Virus record (IMG/VR): IMGVR_UViG_3300031555_003626
Location: 128,001 to 192,000 of that record
Direction: 5' to 3' (one strand)
From: a virus
Lineage: Duplodnaviria > Caudoviricetes
Length of the DNA: 64,000 nt
The stretch's first letter is position 1; each line of letters starts with the position of its first letter. Below are positions 2,827 through 64,000 of the stretch, one piece after another. Below the pieces are notes generated by a model that searched no databases, had not been told where the DNA came from, and saw nothing but the letters and a program-made list of their open reading frames with translations. Both the position numbers and the translations under genes were made by a program.

Positions 2827-3369
2827 ATGAATAAACCTATTGTTGTTAATTTGACCGGAGCACCGGGAGCTGGTAAGAGCACTGGTGCAGCAAAAATTTT
2901 TAGTGAGCTTAAGCTACTTGGTATTAACTGTGAGCTTGTCGGCGAGTTTGCAAAGGATAAGACTTGGGAGCATAATATTACTGCCCTAAATTGTCAGGAG
3001 TATATCTTTGGTAAGCAGTCCTACAGACTTGCTAGATGTAGAAATGAAGTAGATGTTATTGTTACAGACAGTCCGCTTCCGCTTACTATTATTTATACTA
3101 AAGATGAAAAGATTAAAGAACCACTTACTGCGTTGGCTATGGCTGTATATAATTCTTATGATAATATTAACTTCTTTATAAATAGAGTTAAGCCTTATAA
3201 TCCTAAGGGTCGTAATCAGACGGCCGAAGAAAGTGATGCTCTGAGCACAGAAATTAAGGAACTGTATCAGAGATTAAATATTCCGTATACTGAAATCACT
3301 GGCGATGAGGAAGGCTATCAGAAAGCTATTGCTAAAGTAGTGACTAAACTTAATACTATAAATAATTAA
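2827..3369 (+). CDS. P-loop NTPase/kinase, NadR/AAA_28-like
   Basis: Walker A GAPGAGKST, V.EFA, VIVTDSP, GR.Q motifs. Confidence 0.75.
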   Translation: MNKPIVVNLTGAPGAGKSTGAAKIFSELKLLGINCELVGEFAKDKTWEHNITALNCQEYIFGKQSYRLARCRNEVDVIVTDSPLPLTIIYTKDEKIKEPLTALAMAVYNSYDNINFFINRVKPYNPKGRNQTAEESDALSTEIKELYQRLNIPYTEITGDEEGYQKAIAKVVTKLNTINN

Positions 3370-3466: not shown

Positions 3467-3832
3467 ATGTCAAAGCTTAAGATTAAAACTCATACTACTT
3501 ATACTTATGAAACTACTGACGGCAGAGAATTCGAAGACCAGTCTGAGGCTCAGGAGTGGCAGGACCATTTAGAAAATATTACTGGCACCGTAATGCTTGA
3601 TCATAATTTTTGTAATACTACCAGAGTAGACGAAGCTATGTATGTACATGTTAAAACTGAGGCTCAGCTCAAAGCTTTTGAAGCTATCAATTCTTATGAA
3701 GGCATGTGTGCGAAGATTGATGCTCTCGGCTACTGGTACTATGATGAGCGCACAGATAATTATGTAAGCGTAAATAAGGAAATGTATAGGCTTCAGAGCA
3801 TTATTGAAACTCTTGATGTTCTTGGAAAGTGA
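3467..3832 (+). CDS. Hypothetical protein
   Basis: GAGGTG RBS; Y.T.DG..F motif shared with 26489 and 56293 ORFs. Confidence 0.75.
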   Translation: MSKLKIKTHTTYTYETTDGREFEDQSEAQEWQDHLENITGTVMLDHNFCNTTRVDEAMYVHVKTEAQLKAFEAINSYEGMCAKIDALGYWYYDERTDNYVSVNKEMYRLQSIIETLDVLGK

Positions 3833-3839
3833 GGATACG

Positions 3840-4994
3840 ATGTTTAATACTGAACTTGGCTTGTTTTGCTATATGCACGATAACTGGGAAGAGCTTTTGA
3901 CTCAAGAGCCTTATTATCTTAAGATAAAGGAAGACGGCCCTTATGTAATTTTTAACTATGACCAGCTCAGATCAGATTTTTCTAATCATATTGTTCAGGA
4001 AGCTAGAGGCATTATCTTTAAAAGAGATGATTGGACTCATCCTGTTTGTTGGCCGTTTATGAAGTTTTTTAATGCAGGAGAGCCAAACGCAGCAGAGATT
4101 GATTGGTCTACCGCTTTCGTATCTGAGAAGGTCGACGGCTCTCTAATTAAGGTATGGTGGGATGGTTCTTGGAAGATCTCTACTAATGGAACTATTGATG
4201 CTTATAAGGCAGAGATTGGTGACGCTAGAATGCCTGACTTCGGAACTTACTTTACTGAAACTATTCATACATACTATACTACCTGCAGTAGTTTTCTTTG
4301 TGAGCTTGACTCGGACCTTACCTATATGTTTGAGTTGGTAGGCCCTTATAACAGAGTAGTTATTCCTTACGAAGAGCCTGATATCTATTTCCTTGGAGCT
4401 CGTAATAAGTATACCGGAGAAGAGCTTAACTGTTCTCCTTTGGCTGCTGGTGCTCTTGGTATGGGAAGATTTAAGTTGCCTAAGCAGTACCCTTTTAATA
4501 CTTTGGAGCATTGTATTAAGGTTACTGAGAATTTCCCTTGGGACGCAGAAGGCGTTGTAGCCTGTGATGCTAATTTTAACCGTGTTAAGATAAAGTCGCC
4601 TGCTTATGTTATGGCGCACTTCGCCCGGAATAATAATGTGATCAATAGAAAGCATCTTATCAACGTAATCCTTACTAATGAGGTAGAAGAGTTTCTTTGT
4701 TATGCCGCCGACTACAAGGAAGAGCTCGAGAAGGTACAGAATCTTATGAAGGCTTACTATAAGGTAGGCGATCAGATTGCTAAGTCCTGTCAGCGACTCT
4801 ATGATATTCCTAAAAAGACTTATGCTTACTGGGTACAGACTCTTCCTAAGATTTATCAGGACCTTGCTTTCAGAAATTATAATAACATTATGTCTACTAA
4901 GGATTATACCGCCGGCTGGAATGAGAATAAGTGGGACCAGTATCTTGATGAGTTTGAAAAGCTTAAGGAGGTTTTGTTTGATGGCAAAAATTGA
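3840..4994 (+). CDS. RNA ligase, T4 Rnl1 (RnlA)-like
   Basis: EARGIIF, KFFN, motif I EKVDGSLI, FEL, EGVV, KIKS. Confidence 0.85.
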   Translation: MFNTELGLFCYMHDNWEELLTQEPYYLKIKEDGPYVIFNYDQLRSDFSNHIVQEARGIIFKRDDWTHPVCWPFMKFFNAGEPNAAEIDWSTAFVSEKVDGSLIKVWWDGSWKISTNGTIDAYKAEIGDARMPDFGTYFTETIHTYYTTCSSFLCELDSDLTYMFELVGPYNRVVIPYEEPDIYFLGARNKYTGEELNCSPLAAGALGMGRFKLPKQYPFNTLEHCIKVTENFPWDAEGVVACDANFNRVKIKSPAYVMAHFARNNNVINRKHLINVILTNEVEEFLCYAADYKEELEKVQNLMKAYYKVGDQIAKSCQRLYDIPKKTYAYWVQTLPKIYQDLAFRNYNNIMSTKDYTAGWNENKWDQYLDEFEKLKEVLFDGKN

Positions 4995-13983: not shown

Positions 13984-14379
13984 ATGGCACTTGATATTGA
14001 TGAGATCAGAGTTAATTATAATAAGGGAGTATATACTTATAAAGCAGATATTCCTAAAAAAGTAAAGCCTGATCATGTATTTGATGAGGAACTCTCTGTT
14101 AAGCGCAATCGTGAGCTCGCACAGGAACATAACGACAATGTTGACAGGCTGTGGCGAGATAAGAATAGAATTCAGAGAGAACTCGATGAACGACTTACTT
14201 ACGATGTAGTTGTTTATATGATGTCATATTATGATCTCACTGAGCGACAGGCAAAAATTGTTGAGAATTTTGTTTATCAGCACTATCATTCTTCTATGAG
14301 TGACTATTTCGGCTATATTGATACTTTTGCTGATTTTGCTTTTATGCTTGTTGAACCAAAGGAGGAAACAAATGACTGA
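13984..14379 (+). CDS. Hypothetical protein
   Basis: AAGGAG RBS before ATG 13984. Confidence 0.75.
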   Translation: MALDIDEIRVNYNKGVYTYKADIPKKVKPDHVFDEELSVKRNRELAQEHNDNVDRLWRDKNRIQRELDERLTYDVVVYMMSYYDLTERQAKIVENFVYQHYHSSMSDYFGYIDTFADFAFMLVEPKEETND

Positions 14380-15397
14380 CTTTAAAGAGATCCTTAAAAC
14401 ACCTGAGTATGAGTTTTTAAAGACAAATCCTCATCTCGGCAAGAATATTATTCTTCTTGGTCTTGGTGGTTCGCACGCTTATGGAACTAACGTAGAAGGC
14501 TCTGATGTTGATATTAGAGGTGTTGCGCTTAATTCTAAGGCTGAAATTCTTGGCGCAGCTAACTTTGAGCAAGTAGTTAACGAAGCTACAGATACTACTG
14601 TTTATTCAATTAGAAAGATTGTTAGTTTGCTTTCTTCTTGTAATCCTAATACTATTGAGCTGTTAGGTTTGAAGCCCGAGCATTATCTTTATTTATCGTC
14701 GGGCGGTCAGGAGCTACTTGATAATAAGAAACTTTTCCTTTCAAAGAGAGCTAAGTATTCTTTCGGTGGTTATGCTTTCGCACAGCTGAGAAGACTTGAT
14801 AATAAGGCAGCGCGGACAATCGCGCAGGCAGAAAGAGAGCAGCATATTCTTAATAGTATCACGACAGCTACCTATACTTGGCCTGAGAAATATGGCTGCT
14901 TTAAAGACGGTGAAGGAATAAAGCTTTATCTTGATAACTCTGCACAGGATGATATGGATAAAGAAATTTATATGGATATTAACTTGACTCACTATCCACT
15001 TCGAGACTATAAGGCAATGTGGTCAGATATGAAGAATATCGTTTCTGACTATGATAAAATTGGACACCGAAATCAGAATGCTATCGAGCGAGGAAAGCTT
15101 GGAAAACACATGATGCATCTCGTAAGACTTTACTTGATGTGCATTGATATTCTTGAGAAAGAAGAAATTAACACTTACCGTGAGAAAGACATTCCTTTTC
15201 TTATGGATATTCGTAACGGTAAATTCCTAGATGCAGAGTCGCAGCCACTCCCCGAATTCTATGAAATGGTAAGTGACTATGAGAAGCGTCTTGATTATGC
15301 TGCTGAAAATACGAGTCTGCCCGAGAAGCCGGACTATAATGCAATTAATGAATTTCTTATGAGTGTTAACGAAAGAGTTGTTAAAGATTTAATTTAA
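14372..15397 (+). CDS. Pol-beta superfamily nucleotidyltransferase (RlaP/YcgL-like)
   Basis: GSHAYG...SDVDIRGV, NPN.IELL, KHMMHLVRL; directly upstream of an RNA ligase. Confidence 0.8.
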   Translation: MTDFKEILKTPEYEFLKTNPHLGKNIILLGLGGSHAYGTNVEGSDVDIRGVALNSKAEILGAANFEQVVNEATDTTVYSIRKIVSLLSSCNPNTIELLGLKPEHYLYLSSGGQELLDNKKLFLSKRAKYSFGGYAFAQLRRLDNKAARTIAQAEREQHILNSITTATYTWPEKYGCFKDGEGIKLYLDNSAQDDMDKEIYMDINLTHYPLRDYKAMWSDMKNIVSDYDKIGHRNQNAIERGKLGKHMMHLVRLYLMCIDILEKEEINTYREKDIPFLMDIRNGKFLDAESQPLPEFYEMVSDYEKRLDYAAENTSLPEKPDYNAINEFLMSVNERVVKDLI

Positions 15398-15411
15398 AGG
15401 AGAAAAATAAA

Positions 15412-16041
15412 ATGATTGAATACAATAAGATTGATACTCTTTACAAGAGAGATATGGAAGGAACTAAGAAGCTTCTCGAGGGTGAGTTTAGAAATCCTAC
15501 AGTAGAGTTTCTTAAGGATAATATTTGGACTTTTACCGAGAAGATTGACGGAACCAATATATCCGTTTGTTGGGATGGACATACTATTACATTTAACGGC
15601 AGAACAGAAAGAGCTGAGATTCCTACACATCTTCTTAACTACCTTATGGCTACTTTTAAGACAAATGAGGCTGAACAGATTTTTGAGGAGAAGTTTGGTG
15701 AGACGCCGGTAATTCTTTTTGGTGAGGGCTATGGTCCTAAGATTCAGAACGGTGGAAACTACAGAGCTGACGTAAGCTTTATTATGTTTGACGTTCTTAT
15801 TGCAGGCAACTACCAGCCTAGAGAATCCGTAGAAGATATCGCAAAGGCATTTGGTATTGATATCGTGCCTATTATCTTCGAGGGAACTATTCAGGAAGGC
15901 GTAAACTTTGTAAAGGGTCATCCTGATTCTACTATGGGTACCGCAAAAATGGAGGGTCTCGTTGGTCGTCCTAAGATAGAGATGCGCGACCGTTGTGGTA
16001 AGCGAGTTATTGTTAAGATTAAGTGGGAAGACTTTAAGTAA
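15412..16041 (+). CDS. RNA ligase, Rnl2-like adenylation domain
   Basis: TEKIDGTN, FGEGYG..IQ, FDV, VP, EGLV, KIK. Confidence 0.8.
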   Translation: MIEYNKIDTLYKRDMEGTKKLLEGEFRNPTVEFLKDNIWTFTEKIDGTNISVCWDGHTITFNGRTERAEIPTHLLNYLMATFKTNEAEQIFEEKFGETPVILFGEGYGPKIQNGGNYRADVSFIMFDVLIAGNYQPRESVEDIAKAFGIDIVPIIFEGTIQEGVNFVKGHPDSTMGTAKMEGLVGRPKIEMRDRCGKRVIVKIKWEDFK

Positions 16042-30429: not shown

Positions 30430-30573
30430 CCACAATTGGCGGAACAGGCAACACAAATGTAAGTCCTGACTGTAGGCAGCCGGTGTAAGTCCTACTGGTG
30501 TAGACGCACCGCGGAGTAGCGGCGATACACTGACGAGTGTATCATCTGGGTTCGAATCCCGGGTTGTGGACCA
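30430..30573 (+). tRNA. tRNA-Leu-like RNA with 51-nt D-loop insertion and non-canonical anticodon loop
   Basis: ccacaat/gttgtgg acceptor plus ACCA, T arm ctggg-ttcgaat-cccgg, long variable arm, TGGCGGAA..AGACGC D arm; 6-nt loop ggagta. Confidence 0.6.
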
Positions 30574-57785: not shown

Positions 57786-58712
57786 ATGGCTAAGTTGATT
57801 ATTTTATGTGGGCTTCCTGGAAGTGGAAAGAGCTATTATGCTGCCCAGCTATGGCGAAGAGAAAACACCTTTGATGAGCCTACTGCAGTAGTACACTCTT
57901 CAGATGCTATAAGAAAAGAACTTTTCGGCGATGCAGGCTCGCAGGAAAATAATGCTCTTGTATTTGAGACTATGCATAAGAGAGTAAAGGACGACCTTAG
58001 AGCAGGTAAGACTGTAATTTATGATGCAACTAATATTACTCGAAAGTCTCGTCGTGGAATAATCAATATGACTACTAAAGACGATATTGTTGAGTGCCAT
58101 ATTGTTTGGGCGCCTGTTGATACTTGTATTAAGCGAGATGCCAAGCGCGAGCGCCACGTAGGTAGAGAAGTAATTGATAAGATGATTCGTCGTTGGCAGA
58201 GCCCACATAAGTCTGAAGGTTTTACTTGTATCGATGTTATCTGCTCAGACCCTAACTTTGATCAGACTAAGTACGTAGCAATGCAGGCTGACCAAATGCA
58301 TATACCCCATGACAACCCCCATCACACTCTTGGTGTTTGGGATCATTGTATGCAGGCTTATTACTATCTTTGCCAGCAGCCTAATATCAATGATGACCTG
58401 AAGACTGCTACAATGTGGCATGATATCGGAAAGCCTTATACTAAATCGTGGCATATCGATAAAGTAAACGGAGCAGTAGATTATTCACACGCTCATTATT
58501 ATGATCATCATTGTGTTGGCGGCTATCTTGCTTACGGACTTTTCTTACATAAGGATTTTGATGAGGAAGATGTAGACTTTATGTGTTGGGTGAGCTGGCT
58601 TATCTGCAATCACATGGAGCCTTTCTTTAACTCTCATTGGTATAGAGAACTTCCTGAGCACTTGAAGCAGCCTATTGATATATTGCATGCCGCTGACGTT
58701 TCTGCACATTAA
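57786..58712 (+). CDS. Polynucleotide kinase (AAA_33) fused to HD phosphohydrolase (Pnk-HD)
   Basis: GLPGSGKS, SSD.IR, YDATN..R..R, then HH...H...HDIGK...H...HM...AD. Confidence 0.85.
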   Translation: MAKLIILCGLPGSGKSYYAAQLWRRENTFDEPTAVVHSSDAIRKELFGDAGSQENNALVFETMHKRVKDDLRAGKTVIYDATNITRKSRRGIINMTTKDDIVECHIVWAPVDTCIKRDAKRERHVGREVIDKMIRRWQSPHKSEGFTCIDVICSDPNFDQTKYVAMQADQMHIPHDNPHHTLGVWDHCMQAYYYLCQQPNINDDLKTATMWHDIGKPYTKSWHIDKVNGAVDYSHAHYYDHHCVGGYLAYGLFLHKDFDEEDVDFMCWVSWLICNHMEPFFNSHWYRELPEHLKQPIDILHAADVSAH

Positions 58713-60943: not shown

Positions 60944-61044
60944 TTAAAATAACTGGGCGTTAATTAATTTTAGCGCCCATAATAAAAAAAATATTTTGCT
61001 AAATTAATTAAAAATTACGTTTATTATATCGTATAATATAATAC

Positions 61045-61157
61045 AGAGCCAATGCTTATTTCTTTGCCTGTTAAGCCGTGTGTCGCAGGTTCGAATCCTG
61101 CCATCCCGCTGCAGTGGGATGTAGCTCAGTGGTAGAGCAACGATTATTAGCTTGGCC
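61045..61157 (+). ncRNA. Circularly permuted tRNA-Asn(GTT)-derived, YrlA-like RNA
   Basis: Conserved stem, then gc-ctgttaa-gccgt, T arm gcagg-ttcgaat-cctgc, closed acceptor catcccg/tgggatg, D arm tagctcagtggtagagc, acg, then stem 3' strand. Confidence 0.8.
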
Positions 61158-61210: not shown

Positions 61211-61328
61211 AGAGCCAATACTTATTTCTTTAATGCTGGGGACTGCGATCGTAGGTTCGACTCCTGCCCCGCCGACCAATCGGTGGGTAGCCAAGCGGTA
61301 AGGCAGCGGTTAAATTAATAGTTTGGCC
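61211..61328 (+). ncRNA. Circularly permuted tRNA-Pro-derived, YrlA-like RNA
   Basis: tgggg-actgc, T arm gtagg-ttcgact-cctgc, acceptor cccgccg-ACCA-at-cggtggg (C1-G72, A73), D arm, gcggt. Confidence 0.8.
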
Positions 61329-61337
61329 AAAAAGTTT

Positions 61338-61451
61338 AGAACCAATGCTTATTTCTTATGATTTTCCAGCTGGCCGTGCGGGTTCGATTCCCGTCGCTCG
61401 CAGAGCGGGTGTAGCTCAATGGTAGAGTTCCAGCTTTCATTTAGCTTGGTC
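61338..61451 (+). ncRNA. Circularly permuted tRNA-Gly(TCC)-derived, YrlA-like RNA
   Basis: ttcca-gctgg, T arm gcggg-ttcgatt-cccgt, acceptor cgctcgc-aga-gcgggtg, D arm, ccagc. Confidence 0.8.
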
Positions 61452-61467
61452 ATATTTTGTTTAATAT

Positions 61468-61577
61468 GGGCTGATTAGCTTAGTGGTAAACCTTGGGTAG
61501 TTTCACATACCAAGTTAAGAGGCAGAGCCCCTCCCTTCAAAGGAGGAGACTCCGGTTCGACTCCGGAATCTGGCCCA
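61468..61577 (+). tRNA. tRNA with UCA anticodon (UGA-reading) and D-loop insertion
   Basis: cctcc-cttcaaa-ggagg anticodon arm, T arm tccgg-ttcgact-ccgga, bulged 8-bp acceptor; about 35-nt hairpin in the D loop. Confidence 0.6.
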
Positions 61578-61585
61578 CTTAATAT

Positions 61586-62342: not shown

Positions 62343-62365
62343 AAAATCAATTTAATTAATAATAT

Positions 62366-62465
62366 GGGCATGTAAACTAAAATGGTAGAGTGGGATAATT
62401 GCCCGTGAGGTTCGATTCCTCCTTGGTCTTTGGTAGATATGCCGGTTCAAGTCCGGTCGTGCACT
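62366..62465 (+). pseudogene. Degenerate tRNA-like sequence with two T arms
   Basis: gggcatg/cgtgcac ends, D-arm-like start, gagg-ttcgatt-cctc and gccgg-ttcaagt-ccggt; no anticodon arm or CCA. Confidence 0.4.
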
Positions 62466-62472
62466 TTAATAC

Positions 62473-63213: not shown

Positions 63214-63446
63214 TCTGAACTTTATAAAGATAATCGACGTCTGAGATTAAGTTATTGAAAAATAAACTTAATTTTAGGCGTTATTTTTATCTAAAACTGT
63301 TTAAAATTTGCATTATGTTATTGTATAATATAATGTTAACGGTTATAATATCGGTTTGATATAAGCGGCATATATCATTTAATTGCGCCCTGCACCGAGG
63401 CGCACCCGATACAGTTGTTCACCTTAAGCAACTTCTGTCTATACAT

Positions 63447-63645
63447 GCTTCCGTAGCTCAGCTGGTAGAGCAACAGACTTTGATTGAATCGTTTAAATGG
63501 GTTATTAGATTAGTGAATGGTATAAACCTAATTTAATAAGTTCTGTTCGTAGGACATCGGCCTGATAGCCGAAGATGTGAGTTCAAGTCTCGTTTCAGTC
63601 ACCATAATCTGTGGGTCGCGGGTTCGATTCCCGCCGGAGGCACCA
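63447..63645 (+). tRNA. tRNA-Lys(TTT) interrupted by a nested tRNA-like element (63482-63604)
   Basis: Removing the insert gives a 76-nt tRNA with acaga-cttttaa-tctgt and ACCA end. Confidence 0.85.
63482..63604 (+). other. Nested tRNA-like insert 3 (123 nt, Ile-like, own D-loop hairpin, ends ACCA)
   Basis: gattgaa/ttcagtc acceptor, tcggc-ctgata-gccga (6-nt loop), gtgag-ttcaagt-ctcgt. Confidence 0.8.
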
Positions 63646-63665
63646 AAAAATTTTAGGAGTTAATA

Positions 63666-63851
63666 ATGAAAGTAAGATATACTTGTAAACATTGTAATGA
63701 GACAAACGAAATCACAAATTTTTGGAAGTGGTTTTGGACCCCGCATTTTGGAACCAGAAAGCGCCTTCATTGTAAGGCTTGTAACAAGGTTAGCTATATG
63801 AAACGTCAGGATGGTCGAAAGATCCTTGACTGGTATACAGAAAAGAAATAA
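63666..63851 (+). CDS. Small Zn-ribbon protein
   Basis: AGGAG RBS; CKHC...PH....L.CKAC. Confidence 0.7.
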   Translation: MKVRYTCKHCNETNEITNFWKWFWTPHFGTRKRLHCKACNKVSYMKRQDGRKILDWYTEKK

Positions 63852-63860
63852 TTTAATATG

Positions 63861-64000
63861 GGGTAGGTAGTGAAGTGGCCAAACACGCGGACTGTAACTC
63901 CGTGCTTCATTGTATTGAGCTTATCCGAAGGAACTCGCGACTCTGTAAGATATGATTCAATCAAGTTTAGGCGCGCATGTGACTTGTGAAGCTTCGCTGG
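63861..64000 (+). tRNA. tRNA-Tyr(GTA) with ~90-nt expanded variable arm, truncated by window end
   Basis: gtgaagtggccaaacac D arm, gcgga-ctgtaac-tccgt, gcttca...tgaagc stem, then ttc gctgg (start of T arm). Confidence 0.65.

Follow-up and report, generated by a model that had tools for sequence, protein, structure and literature searches.

In a 64,000-nucleotide (nt) stretch of phage DNA (bases 128001–192000 of the 233,329-bp IMG/VR phage record IMGVR_UViG_3300031555_003626; hereafter the window), the gene for tRNA-Lys(UUU) at positions 63447–63645 is split by a 123-nt insert, 63482–63604, which lies inside the anticodon, between U35 and U36, and is itself shaped like a tRNA. This insert is very probably an expanded member of a family of tRNA-shaped inserts, each of which runs from a +1 nucleotide to an encoded CCA. 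We lean towards regarding it as an intervening sequence that is excised by RNase P, a post-CCA endonuclease and a phage RNA ligase, a route of which we infer every enzymatic step.

The tRNA cluster of the phage begins near position 61000 of the window. The Rfam tRNA model matches the split gene with 53.1 bits over 63447–63642, looping about 125 nt out of the anticodon loop, while ARAGORN misses the gene at its default settings and, when introns are allowed, finds it with the intron misplaced and the label Gln. The 5' exon (63447–63481) contains the acceptor strand, the D arm, the first strand of the anticodon stem (63473–63477) and the loop bases C32, U33, U34 and U35 (63478–63481). The 3' exon (63605–63645) resumes with U36, A37 and A38 (63605–63607), followed by the second strand of the anticodon stem (63608–63612, pairing with 63473–63477), the variable loop, the T arm, the acceptor strand and ACCA. 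Both exons are on the + strand, as are the insert, its structural elements and the ligase and kinase genes described below. When the insert is deleted in silico, a 7-nt loop, CUUU+UAA, is left, and ARAGORN then calls tRNA-Lys(ttt).

The boundaries of the insert, from its +1 G through ACCA, are given by empty-site alleles. Syntenic relatives were reached through a zinc-ribbon open reading frame (ORF) at 63666–63851, just 3' of the tRNA-Lys gene, and four of them (contigs L325, L326, L327 and L329) carry an uninterrupted tRNA-Lys(UUU) gene. BLAST colinearity with L325, L326 and L327 breaks off at 63481 and picks up again at 63605, the sequences of the relatives continuing without a gap; in L326, window positions 63284–63481 correspond to 2740–2939 and positions 63605–63844 to 2940–3179. 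The break thus falls at 63481/63605 in all three, and the coordinates proposed in an earlier reading of the bare sequence (the original prediction) prove to be exact. Orthologous genes without interruption are also found in L168, L170 and L179, and the same 26-nt 5' exon occurs in 52 phage contigs, 50 of which run straight into TAATC. Since the orthologues are uninterrupted, the insert was either gained in this lineage or lost in every other; our preferred explanation takes it to be a recent gain. The zinc-ribbon-like ORF adjoining the gene encodes 61 amino acids (aa) with two CxxC pairs, and it is syntenic in four of six relatives, with 56–95% identity.

The exons of the tRNA-Lys gene are intact and under tRNA constraint. 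Relative to the intronless orthologues, they show compensatory changes in the acceptor and anticodon stems, and no other tRNA-Lys gene is called in the 233-kb genome, so that the split gene is the only one detected.

Inserts of this kind were collected from every ARAGORN intron candidate in the loci fetched, under a rule with three parts: N-CCA is preceded by 7 nt that pair with the first 7 of the insert, a tRNA remains once the insert is taken out, and the junction lies at the anticodon. The resulting family comprises 15 distinct inserts of 50–123 nt, located in genes for tRNA-Lys(UUU) (five), tRNA-Leu(UAA) (four) and tRNA-Gln(UUG) (two), and in one gene each for tRNA-Glu(UUC), tRNA-Arg(UCU), tRNA-Thr(UGU) and tRNA-Asp(GUC). 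Three of them belong to the phage studied here, in its tRNA-Lys, tRNA-Leu(UAA) and tRNA-Gln(UUG) genes, and the Lys insert, at 123 nt, is the largest of the collection, the others measuring 50–119 nt. Exact removal restores a canonical anticodon loop in all 15 cases, with insertion points between positions 34 and 37, and the anticodon obtained under the rule always fits the body of the surrounding tRNA, as seen in U1-A72/G73 of Gln and in the long variable arm of Leu; the Asp member acquires the E. coli-like loop CUGUCAC. The default intron placement of ARAGORN in these genes gives wrong identities. As a control, the same structural test was applied with other trinucleotides, each of which returned at most 5 genes, compared with 14 interrupted genes for a terminal CCA.

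Covariation within the family was assessed by anchored counts, the MAFFT alignment of the short members being too poor at their 5' ends for a covariance model. Each acceptor position shows 3–6 pair types across the 15 members, and the T stem covaries too. The base before the insert is U in 13 of 15 members and the +1 base is G in 13 of 15. What the family conserves, namely the acceptor/T-arm helix, the T loop and NCCA, is what tRNA end-processing enzymes read, while the centre is hypervariable in both length and sequence. The distribution of inserts among close relatives is patchy. Within the phage, positions 93–116 of the Lys insert (63574–63597; the T arm and adjoining bases) are identical at 23 of 24 positions to the insert of its tRNA-Leu gene, and each of the three inserts alone passes the Rfam tRNA threshold (29.9 bits for Lys, 35.9 and 35.7 bits for the other two). 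The Lys insert is the only member with a full-length anticodon-like arm. Elsewhere in the collected loci, a free-standing tRNA-like gene (L179, 17453–17550) and a 119-nt tRNA-Thr insert (L193, 5350–5468) have the central motif CCGAATCCCAGG-AAAAGAC in common, a likeness in sequence which suggests that inserts and free-standing tRNA mimics may exchange modules.

The structure of the Lys insert was derived from the minimum-free-energy (MFE) fold and the pair probabilities of its single sequence. Its acceptor stem, GAUUGAA/UUCAGUC (63482–63488 / 63594–63600), is paired at 7 of 7 positions with probabilities of 0.81–1.0. The 3' end (63594–63604) consists of the acceptor 3' strand UUCAGUC, the discriminator A and CCA, with ACCA at 63601–63604. 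The T arm, GUGAG-UUCAAGU-CUCGU (63577–63593), comes from homology and from the tRNA model and is not in the MFE fold; it is canonical in form, with 5 bp and a 7-nt UUCRANU loop, and adjoins the acceptor 3' strand. Between these elements three hairpins are predicted. The first, H1 (63502–63539), is a 12-bp AT-rich hairpin with arms UUAUUAGAUUAG and CUAAUUUAAUAA (63502–63513 / 63528–63539) around a 14-nt loop, UGAAUGGUAUAAAC, and pair probabilities of 0.65–0.84, about 0.84 for the ten inner pairs. The second, H2 (63540–63555), which the original prediction did not describe, is GUUCUG-UUCG-UAGGAC, with 6 bp (63540–63545 / 63550–63555), a UUCG tetraloop and probabilities of 0.57–0.81. The third, H3 (63557–63572), has a 5-bp stem, UCGGC/GCCGA (63557–63561 / 63568–63572), and a 6-nt loop, CUGAUA, with probabilities of 0.87–1.0, at the position of an anticodon arm. 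Both the long AT-rich hairpin and the 5-bp stem with its 6-nt loop had been described before, and both are recovered here. The insert is thus a complete tRNA top half (acceptor stem, T arm, discriminator and CCA) on an expanded, lineage-specific lower half of three hairpins.

The folding z-score of the whole insert is −2.4, and shuffling the insert gives an uninterrupted stem of at least 12 bp (G-U allowed) in 3.0% of cases, while 3.7% of the genome's 123-nt windows contain one; together, these values give moderate, not decisive, support for the hairpins. For the full precursor with the outer anticodon stem enforced, a nested double cloverleaf is predicted at −59.8 kcal/mol, compared with −60.6 kcal/mol for the MFE structure, a difference of 0.8 kcal/mol. 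When the insert is searched alone, the Rfam tRNA model (RF00005) passes marginally, with 29.9 bits against a gathering threshold of 29, over 63530–63601. In this alignment, H2 is the D arm and H3 the anticodon arm with one loop position deleted, AGAUG is the variable region, and a pseudo-acceptor strand with two mismatches is drawn from the 3' arm of H1, so that the spacing is that of a tRNA: a D-arm-like hairpin, 1 nt, a 5-bp stem, a 5-nt variable region and the T arm. The anticodon-like loop has 6 nt where a decoding loop has 7, and ARAGORN under permissive settings returns only 'tRNA-??? (ga)'. Positions 1–13 and 49–61 of the insert are identical at about 10 of 14 positions, in AT-rich sequence and noticed post hoc; a possible internal duplication, suggested by this resemblance, would account for the match of the tRNA model beginning at position 49.

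According to the original prediction, the AT-rich hairpin sits in the D loop of the inner element, a placement that holds for its 5' arm, which lies where the paralogues have their D loop. The first 20 nt of the insert align with the acceptor strand, positions 8–9, the 5' strand of the D stem and the D loop of the paralogous inserts; the homologue of the D-stem 5' strand and D loop, GUUUAAAUGGG (63491–63501), is unpaired in the best fold and aligns with GTTTAATTGGG and GTTTAAAGG, the D region reading GTTT-AAATGGG in this insert and GTTT-AATTGGG or GTTT-AAAGG in the paralogues. In the paralogues, AAAAC follows the D loop directly and closes a 4-bp D stem. In the Lys insert, AAAC (63524–63527) is separated from the D loop by 22 nt, 12 of which form the 5' arm of H1, and the 3' arm of H1 comes after AAAC. 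Since the arms of H1 flank AAAC, this motif lies in the apical loop of H1, and the D stem GUUU/AAAC and H1 are therefore mutually exclusive. Both strands of the family D stem are present, 29 nt apart (63491–63494 and 63524–63527), and are incompatible with H1; the Lys insert is the only member whose family D stem conflicts with its predicted fold; in otherwise equal structures, the D stem gives −16.5 and H1 −25.9 kcal/mol. The D-loop placement is imprecise in that AAAC is inside the hairpin's own loop and in that H2 is the D arm of the Rfam alignment. As predicted from a single sequence, then, three hairpins stand in for two canonical slots and the identity of the D arm is ambiguous. We also considered whether H1 and the D stem GUUU/AAAC might form together as an H-type pseudoknot, and judged this sterically implausible, as 0 nt would lie between the two 3' strands.

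The hairpins also bear on two further claims, namely that the tRNA-Lys gene shows a three-level nesting and that its inner elements tolerate extra structure. The first is not borne out, as the supposed third level has neither an acceptor stem nor a CCA of its own and consists of expansion hairpins only. The second agrees with our results: extra structure in the D/core region is tolerated, as it is in the free-standing tRNA-like RNAs that start at 30430 and 61468.

Neither the viral-contig scans nor one metagenome scan nor the phage's own genome yielded a homologue of the insert's central 70 nt. In the viral contigs, the pattern CCTGATAG..GTTCAAGTC matched at least 98 loci, and among the matches listed none had BLAST similarity to the insert; TTCG..CTGATA..TGTGAGTTC matched 10 loci, all of them by chance in coding sequence, and GTTTAAATGGGTTATTAG gave a single chance match. 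BLAST of the insert against the phage's own genome returned only the 24-nt T-arm match. The T-arm pattern of the family matched at least 118 loci, and among the matches listed there was one more nested insert (L253); the remaining members came from other scans. In the metagenome scan, interrupted copies of this tRNA-Lys exon comprised seven with group I introns, one with an unrelated tRNA-shaped insert (L319) and four others.

Under the splicing route that we propose, RNase P would cut at 63481/63482, 5' of the +1 G of the insert, leaving a 3'-OH on the 5' exon, and an endonuclease of the RNase Z or RNase E type would cut right after the encoded CCA, at 63604/63605, freeing the 3' exon with a 5'-phosphate. 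A phage ATP-dependent RNA ligase, Rnl1-like or Rnl2-like, would then seal the anticodon loop to CUUUUAA, and the spliced junction would be expected to read ...CUUU joined to UAAUCUGU. The D/anticodon half would be free to vary because the processing enzymes would read only the acceptor/T-arm half. RNase P, RNase Z and RNase E leave a 3'-OH and a 5'-phosphate, which are the ends needed by ATP-dependent ligases. Cleavage directly after an encoded CCA has been documented for the RNase Z of Thermotoga maritima, for methanomicrobial RNase Z and for RNase E, which is able to produce the mature CCA end directly (PMC3161902, PMC7479834). RNase E and the proline tRNAs of E. coli are the subject of PMC5291269.

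The boundaries, shape, family membership and intact exons on which this route is built are accompanied by ligase genes. The candidate exon sealer is a T4 Rnl1-type RNA ligase gene (3804–4994; Pfam PF09511, E 8.6e-13; PDB 2C5U and 5TT6, T4 RNA ligase 1, E ~1e-14). A gene for an RlaP nucleotidyltransferase (14300–15397) is followed by one for an Rnl2-like RNA ligase (15412–16041) with a weak match to T4 Rnl2 in the PDB, and the pair (14300–16041) matches Pfam PF10127 and PF09414. About 2.3 kb upstream of the tRNA cluster lies a gene for a polynucleotide-kinase-type P-loop kinase (57786–58712; Pfam AAA_33, E 2e-25), with Pnkp1 and the kinase domain of Clostridium thermocellum Pnkp as its matches in the PDB. 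An RtcB gene was not found in the phage. The one nearly complete insert-bearing relative, G005, encodes both ligases, its Rnl1 orthologue being 79% identical and found with a protein query. A Pfam-profile search for Rnl1 in five insert-bearing records returned none, which was a false negative for G005, and the other four records are 24–79% complete. In more distant relatives (G006, G007 and G008, the records of L176, L178 and L180), an Rnl1 domain occurs in open frames of about 760–780 aa, roughly twice the length of the 396-aa Rnl1-like protein of this phage, which may reflect a fusion with another domain.

Several points weigh against excision by this route. Strong Rnl1 genes are present in three relatives that have no such insert in their tRNA loci, as examined over about 22 kb each rather than over whole records, and the co-occurrence of ligase and insert is not discriminating. 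Neither an RNase Z-like gene nor a gene for EndA, the archaeal splicing endonuclease (PF01974), was found in the phage, so that some other enzyme, of the host or of the phage, would have to make the 3' cut. RNase Z is inhibited by CCA in many bacteria, where exonucleases mature the 3' ends; in such a host the 3' exon would be destroyed unless a further enzyme made the cut. H1–H3, moreover, are a thermodynamic prediction from one sequence, in which a 12-bp stem alone would arise by chance in about 3% of cases.

The alternative that survives best, though we consider it rather unlikely, is that the insert is not spliced out for the sake of a working tRNA-Lys; the tRNA-shaped RNA would itself be the product, freed by tRNA end-processing, with the Lys halves as by-products or as a decoy or regulator. 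The genome does contain free-standing ACCA-ended tRNA-like RNAs with odd centres (30430–30573 and 61468–61578) as well as permuted tRNA-like modules, so tRNA mimics seem to have uses of their own. Each of the phage's three inserts passes the tRNA model, and the central hairpins of the Lys insert are more elaborate than processing requires. Opposed to this are the intact exons with their compensatory substitutions, in what is the only tRNA-Lys gene detected, and the restoration of a canonical loop in 15 of 15 genes, which would not be expected to persist if the outer tRNA were dead. The two possibilities are compatible, as a released insert could also have a function. A more far-reaching idea, which we regard as still less probable, combines them into a nested two-in-one RNA operon, in which end-processing enzymes and the phage ligase would form a protein-dependent splicing pathway that is new for bacteria and for their viruses, and the excised 123-nt CCA-ended RNA, with its extra hairpins and GAU-like 6-nt loop, would be a stable tRNA mimic with a job of its own. 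It might serve as a decoy, either for an anticodon nuclease of the host or for a defence protein that binds tRNA, or it might titrate a synthetase or a modification enzyme.

The free-standing elements have features of their own. In the RNA at 30430–30573, which ends in ACCA, a T arm and an acceptor stem of 7 bp accompany a greatly enlarged centre; like the inserts, this RNA combines a conserved top half with a free bottom half. The RNA at 61468–61578 has the anticodon loop CUUCAAA with UCA, which would read UGA; its D arm is set apart from the acceptor 5' strand by about 36 additional nt, which contain a hairpin and a second segment resembling a D arm, and the Rfam tRNA match covers only 61513–61567, with 31.9 bits. 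Immediately upstream, three tandem circularly permuted tRNA-like modules (61077–61143, 61249–61304 and 61356–61458) each comprise a T arm, an acceptor hairpin and a D arm, and are each preceded by a common motif close to AGAGCCAATRCTTATTTCTT and followed by TTGGCCAAAAA. They score 24–43 bits against Rfam YrlA (Y RNA-like), under the threshold of 69, and no Rsr/TROVE gene was found in the phage. Between tRNA-Trp and tRNA-Ile, at 62365–62470, two T-arm-like motifs (GAGGTTCGATTCCTC and CCGGTTCAAGTCCGG) are present where no tRNA is called. Downstream of the tRNA-Lys gene, a tRNA-Tyr(GUA)-like gene (63861–64000, continuing to position 192020 of the record, G000) has an intact anticodon loop, and its variable-arm region contains an insert of some 84 nt, an arrangement conserved in L170 (16044–16206), L325, L326 and L327.

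The original prediction also held that the inserts derive from a tRNA-Ile inactivated for decoding. In its fuller form, the Lys insert would once have been a tRNA-Ile(GAU), since deprived of one base of its anticodon loop and enlarged by a hairpin in its D loop, and the whole family would stem from tRNA-Ile; we find this improbable. The loop CUGAUA can indeed be read as C32, U33, G34, A35, U36 and A37 of a GAU anticodon loop without position 38, as the Rfam alignment also has it, the spacing of the D-arm-like hairpin, 5-bp stem, variable region and T arm is tRNA-like, and, when the arm is compared with 186 tRNAs from this phage and its relatives, a relative's tRNA-Ile(GAU) gives the highest local score. 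Nevertheless, the arm's matches to tRNA-Ile span about 13–18 nt, gapped and out of register, and, in the comparison with the same 186 tRNAs, the 3' half of the insert, with its T arm and acceptor body, is closest to Pro, His and Leu tRNAs, with Ile ranking 11th. The insert sharing 23 of 24 nt with it, that of tRNA-Leu, has an unrelated central arm that is not Ile-like, and a GAU-like loop is absent from the 14 other inserts, so the link rests on six loop letters and was generalized from one loop. All three hairpins, H1 (AT-rich), H2 (UUCG) and H3 (CUGAUA), are better read as expansions than as relics of a decoding tRNA-Ile. Overall, the earlier observation is partly confirmed and its first interpretation partly supported, in that the inserts are tRNA-shaped and tolerate expansion; the claims of isoleucine ancestry and three-level nesting contribute little and mostly lack support.

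Group I-like introns of about 230 nt are found at CUUU/UAA of tRNA-Lys(UUU) in eight other phage contigs (L127, L309, L310, L311, L314 and L316–L318), the 5' exon of L127 being identical to that of this phage over 32 nt, and two unrelated kinds of intron thus occupy the same site. Although these introns interrupt near-identical tRNA-Lys genes at exactly this point, the insert itself is highly unlikely to be a ribozyme intron, whether self-splicing or self-cleaving (for instance a group I intron in miniature or a pair of small nucleolytic ribozymes), because they are of unrelated sequence and about 230 nt long, its own conserved parts are tRNA features and not a ribozyme core, Rfam finds nothing in its 123 nt but tRNA at E <= 10 and no group I P3–P8 core, and the surrounding 3.5 kb give no match to a ribozyme family at E <= 1.

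Within the proposed picture, the Lys insert is useful in three respects: its clean empty-site alleles fix the boundaries, it shows how much extra structure the non-recognized half can carry, and it interrupts the gene for tRNA-Lys(UUU), on which anticodon nucleases and T4 Rnl1 classically act. A close known case is that of the Lak megaphages, whose tRNAs contain 'enigmatic' introns, one of which 'itself may encode a tRNA', and whose intron excision points were corrected by alignment to intron-less alleles (Devoto et al. 2019, PMC6784885). As here, those introns lie in the anticodon region of phage tRNA genes, are patchy between related genomes and have boundaries obtained from intron-less alleles; the Lak paper, however, gives no boundary rule, mechanism or structure, and the insert described here occurs in the tRNA-Lys of an unrelated 233-kb phage, measures 123 nt and carries three extra hairpins in place of simple D and anticodon arms. 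In the full-text literature, we found nothing relevant on tRNA-like or nested tRNA introns beyond that study.

The T4 PrrC/Pnkp/Rnl1 system resembles the proposed route in its substrate, tRNA-Lys(UUU) broken in the anticodon loop, and this phage encodes both an Rnl1 homologue and a Pnkp-type kinase. The natural role of T4 Rnl1 is to reseal tRNA-Lys broken in the anticodon loop, after healing by Pnkp (PMC2610378, PMC3025547). In T4, the break is inflicted by the host 5' of the wobble base and leaves 2',3'-cyclic phosphate and 5'-OH ends (PMC2610378, PMC3025547), whereas in this phage 123 nt would be removed in a programmed manner, and the action of the ligase on this break is putative. If the route is correct, it would provide large-phage RNA ligases with a physiological substrate other than the repair of nuclease damage.

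Archaeal and eukaryal bulge-helix-bulge (BHB) tRNA introns, which are cut by EndA/Sen and then ligated, likewise depend on proteins for the cut-and-ligate removal of an anticodon-loop intron. They differ in position, at 37/38 as compared with 34/35 to 36/37 for the present inserts, and in structure, as the Lys insert forms no BHB motif, 4 nt and 7 nt flanking a 7-bp helix; the recognition element here would be the intron's own tRNA shape. Besides the self-splicing of group I introns and the BHB/endonuclease pathway, removal by RNase P, a post-CCA endonuclease and a ligase would, if true, constitute a third mode of tRNA splicing. The mascRNA of MALAT1 and mitochondrial tRNA punctuation are familiar cases in which a tRNA-shaped element within a longer RNA sets the ends of its flanks through recognition by RNase P and RNase Z. 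There, the flanks are not rejoined, whereas the two halves of this tRNA-Lys must be ligated to give a working tRNA.

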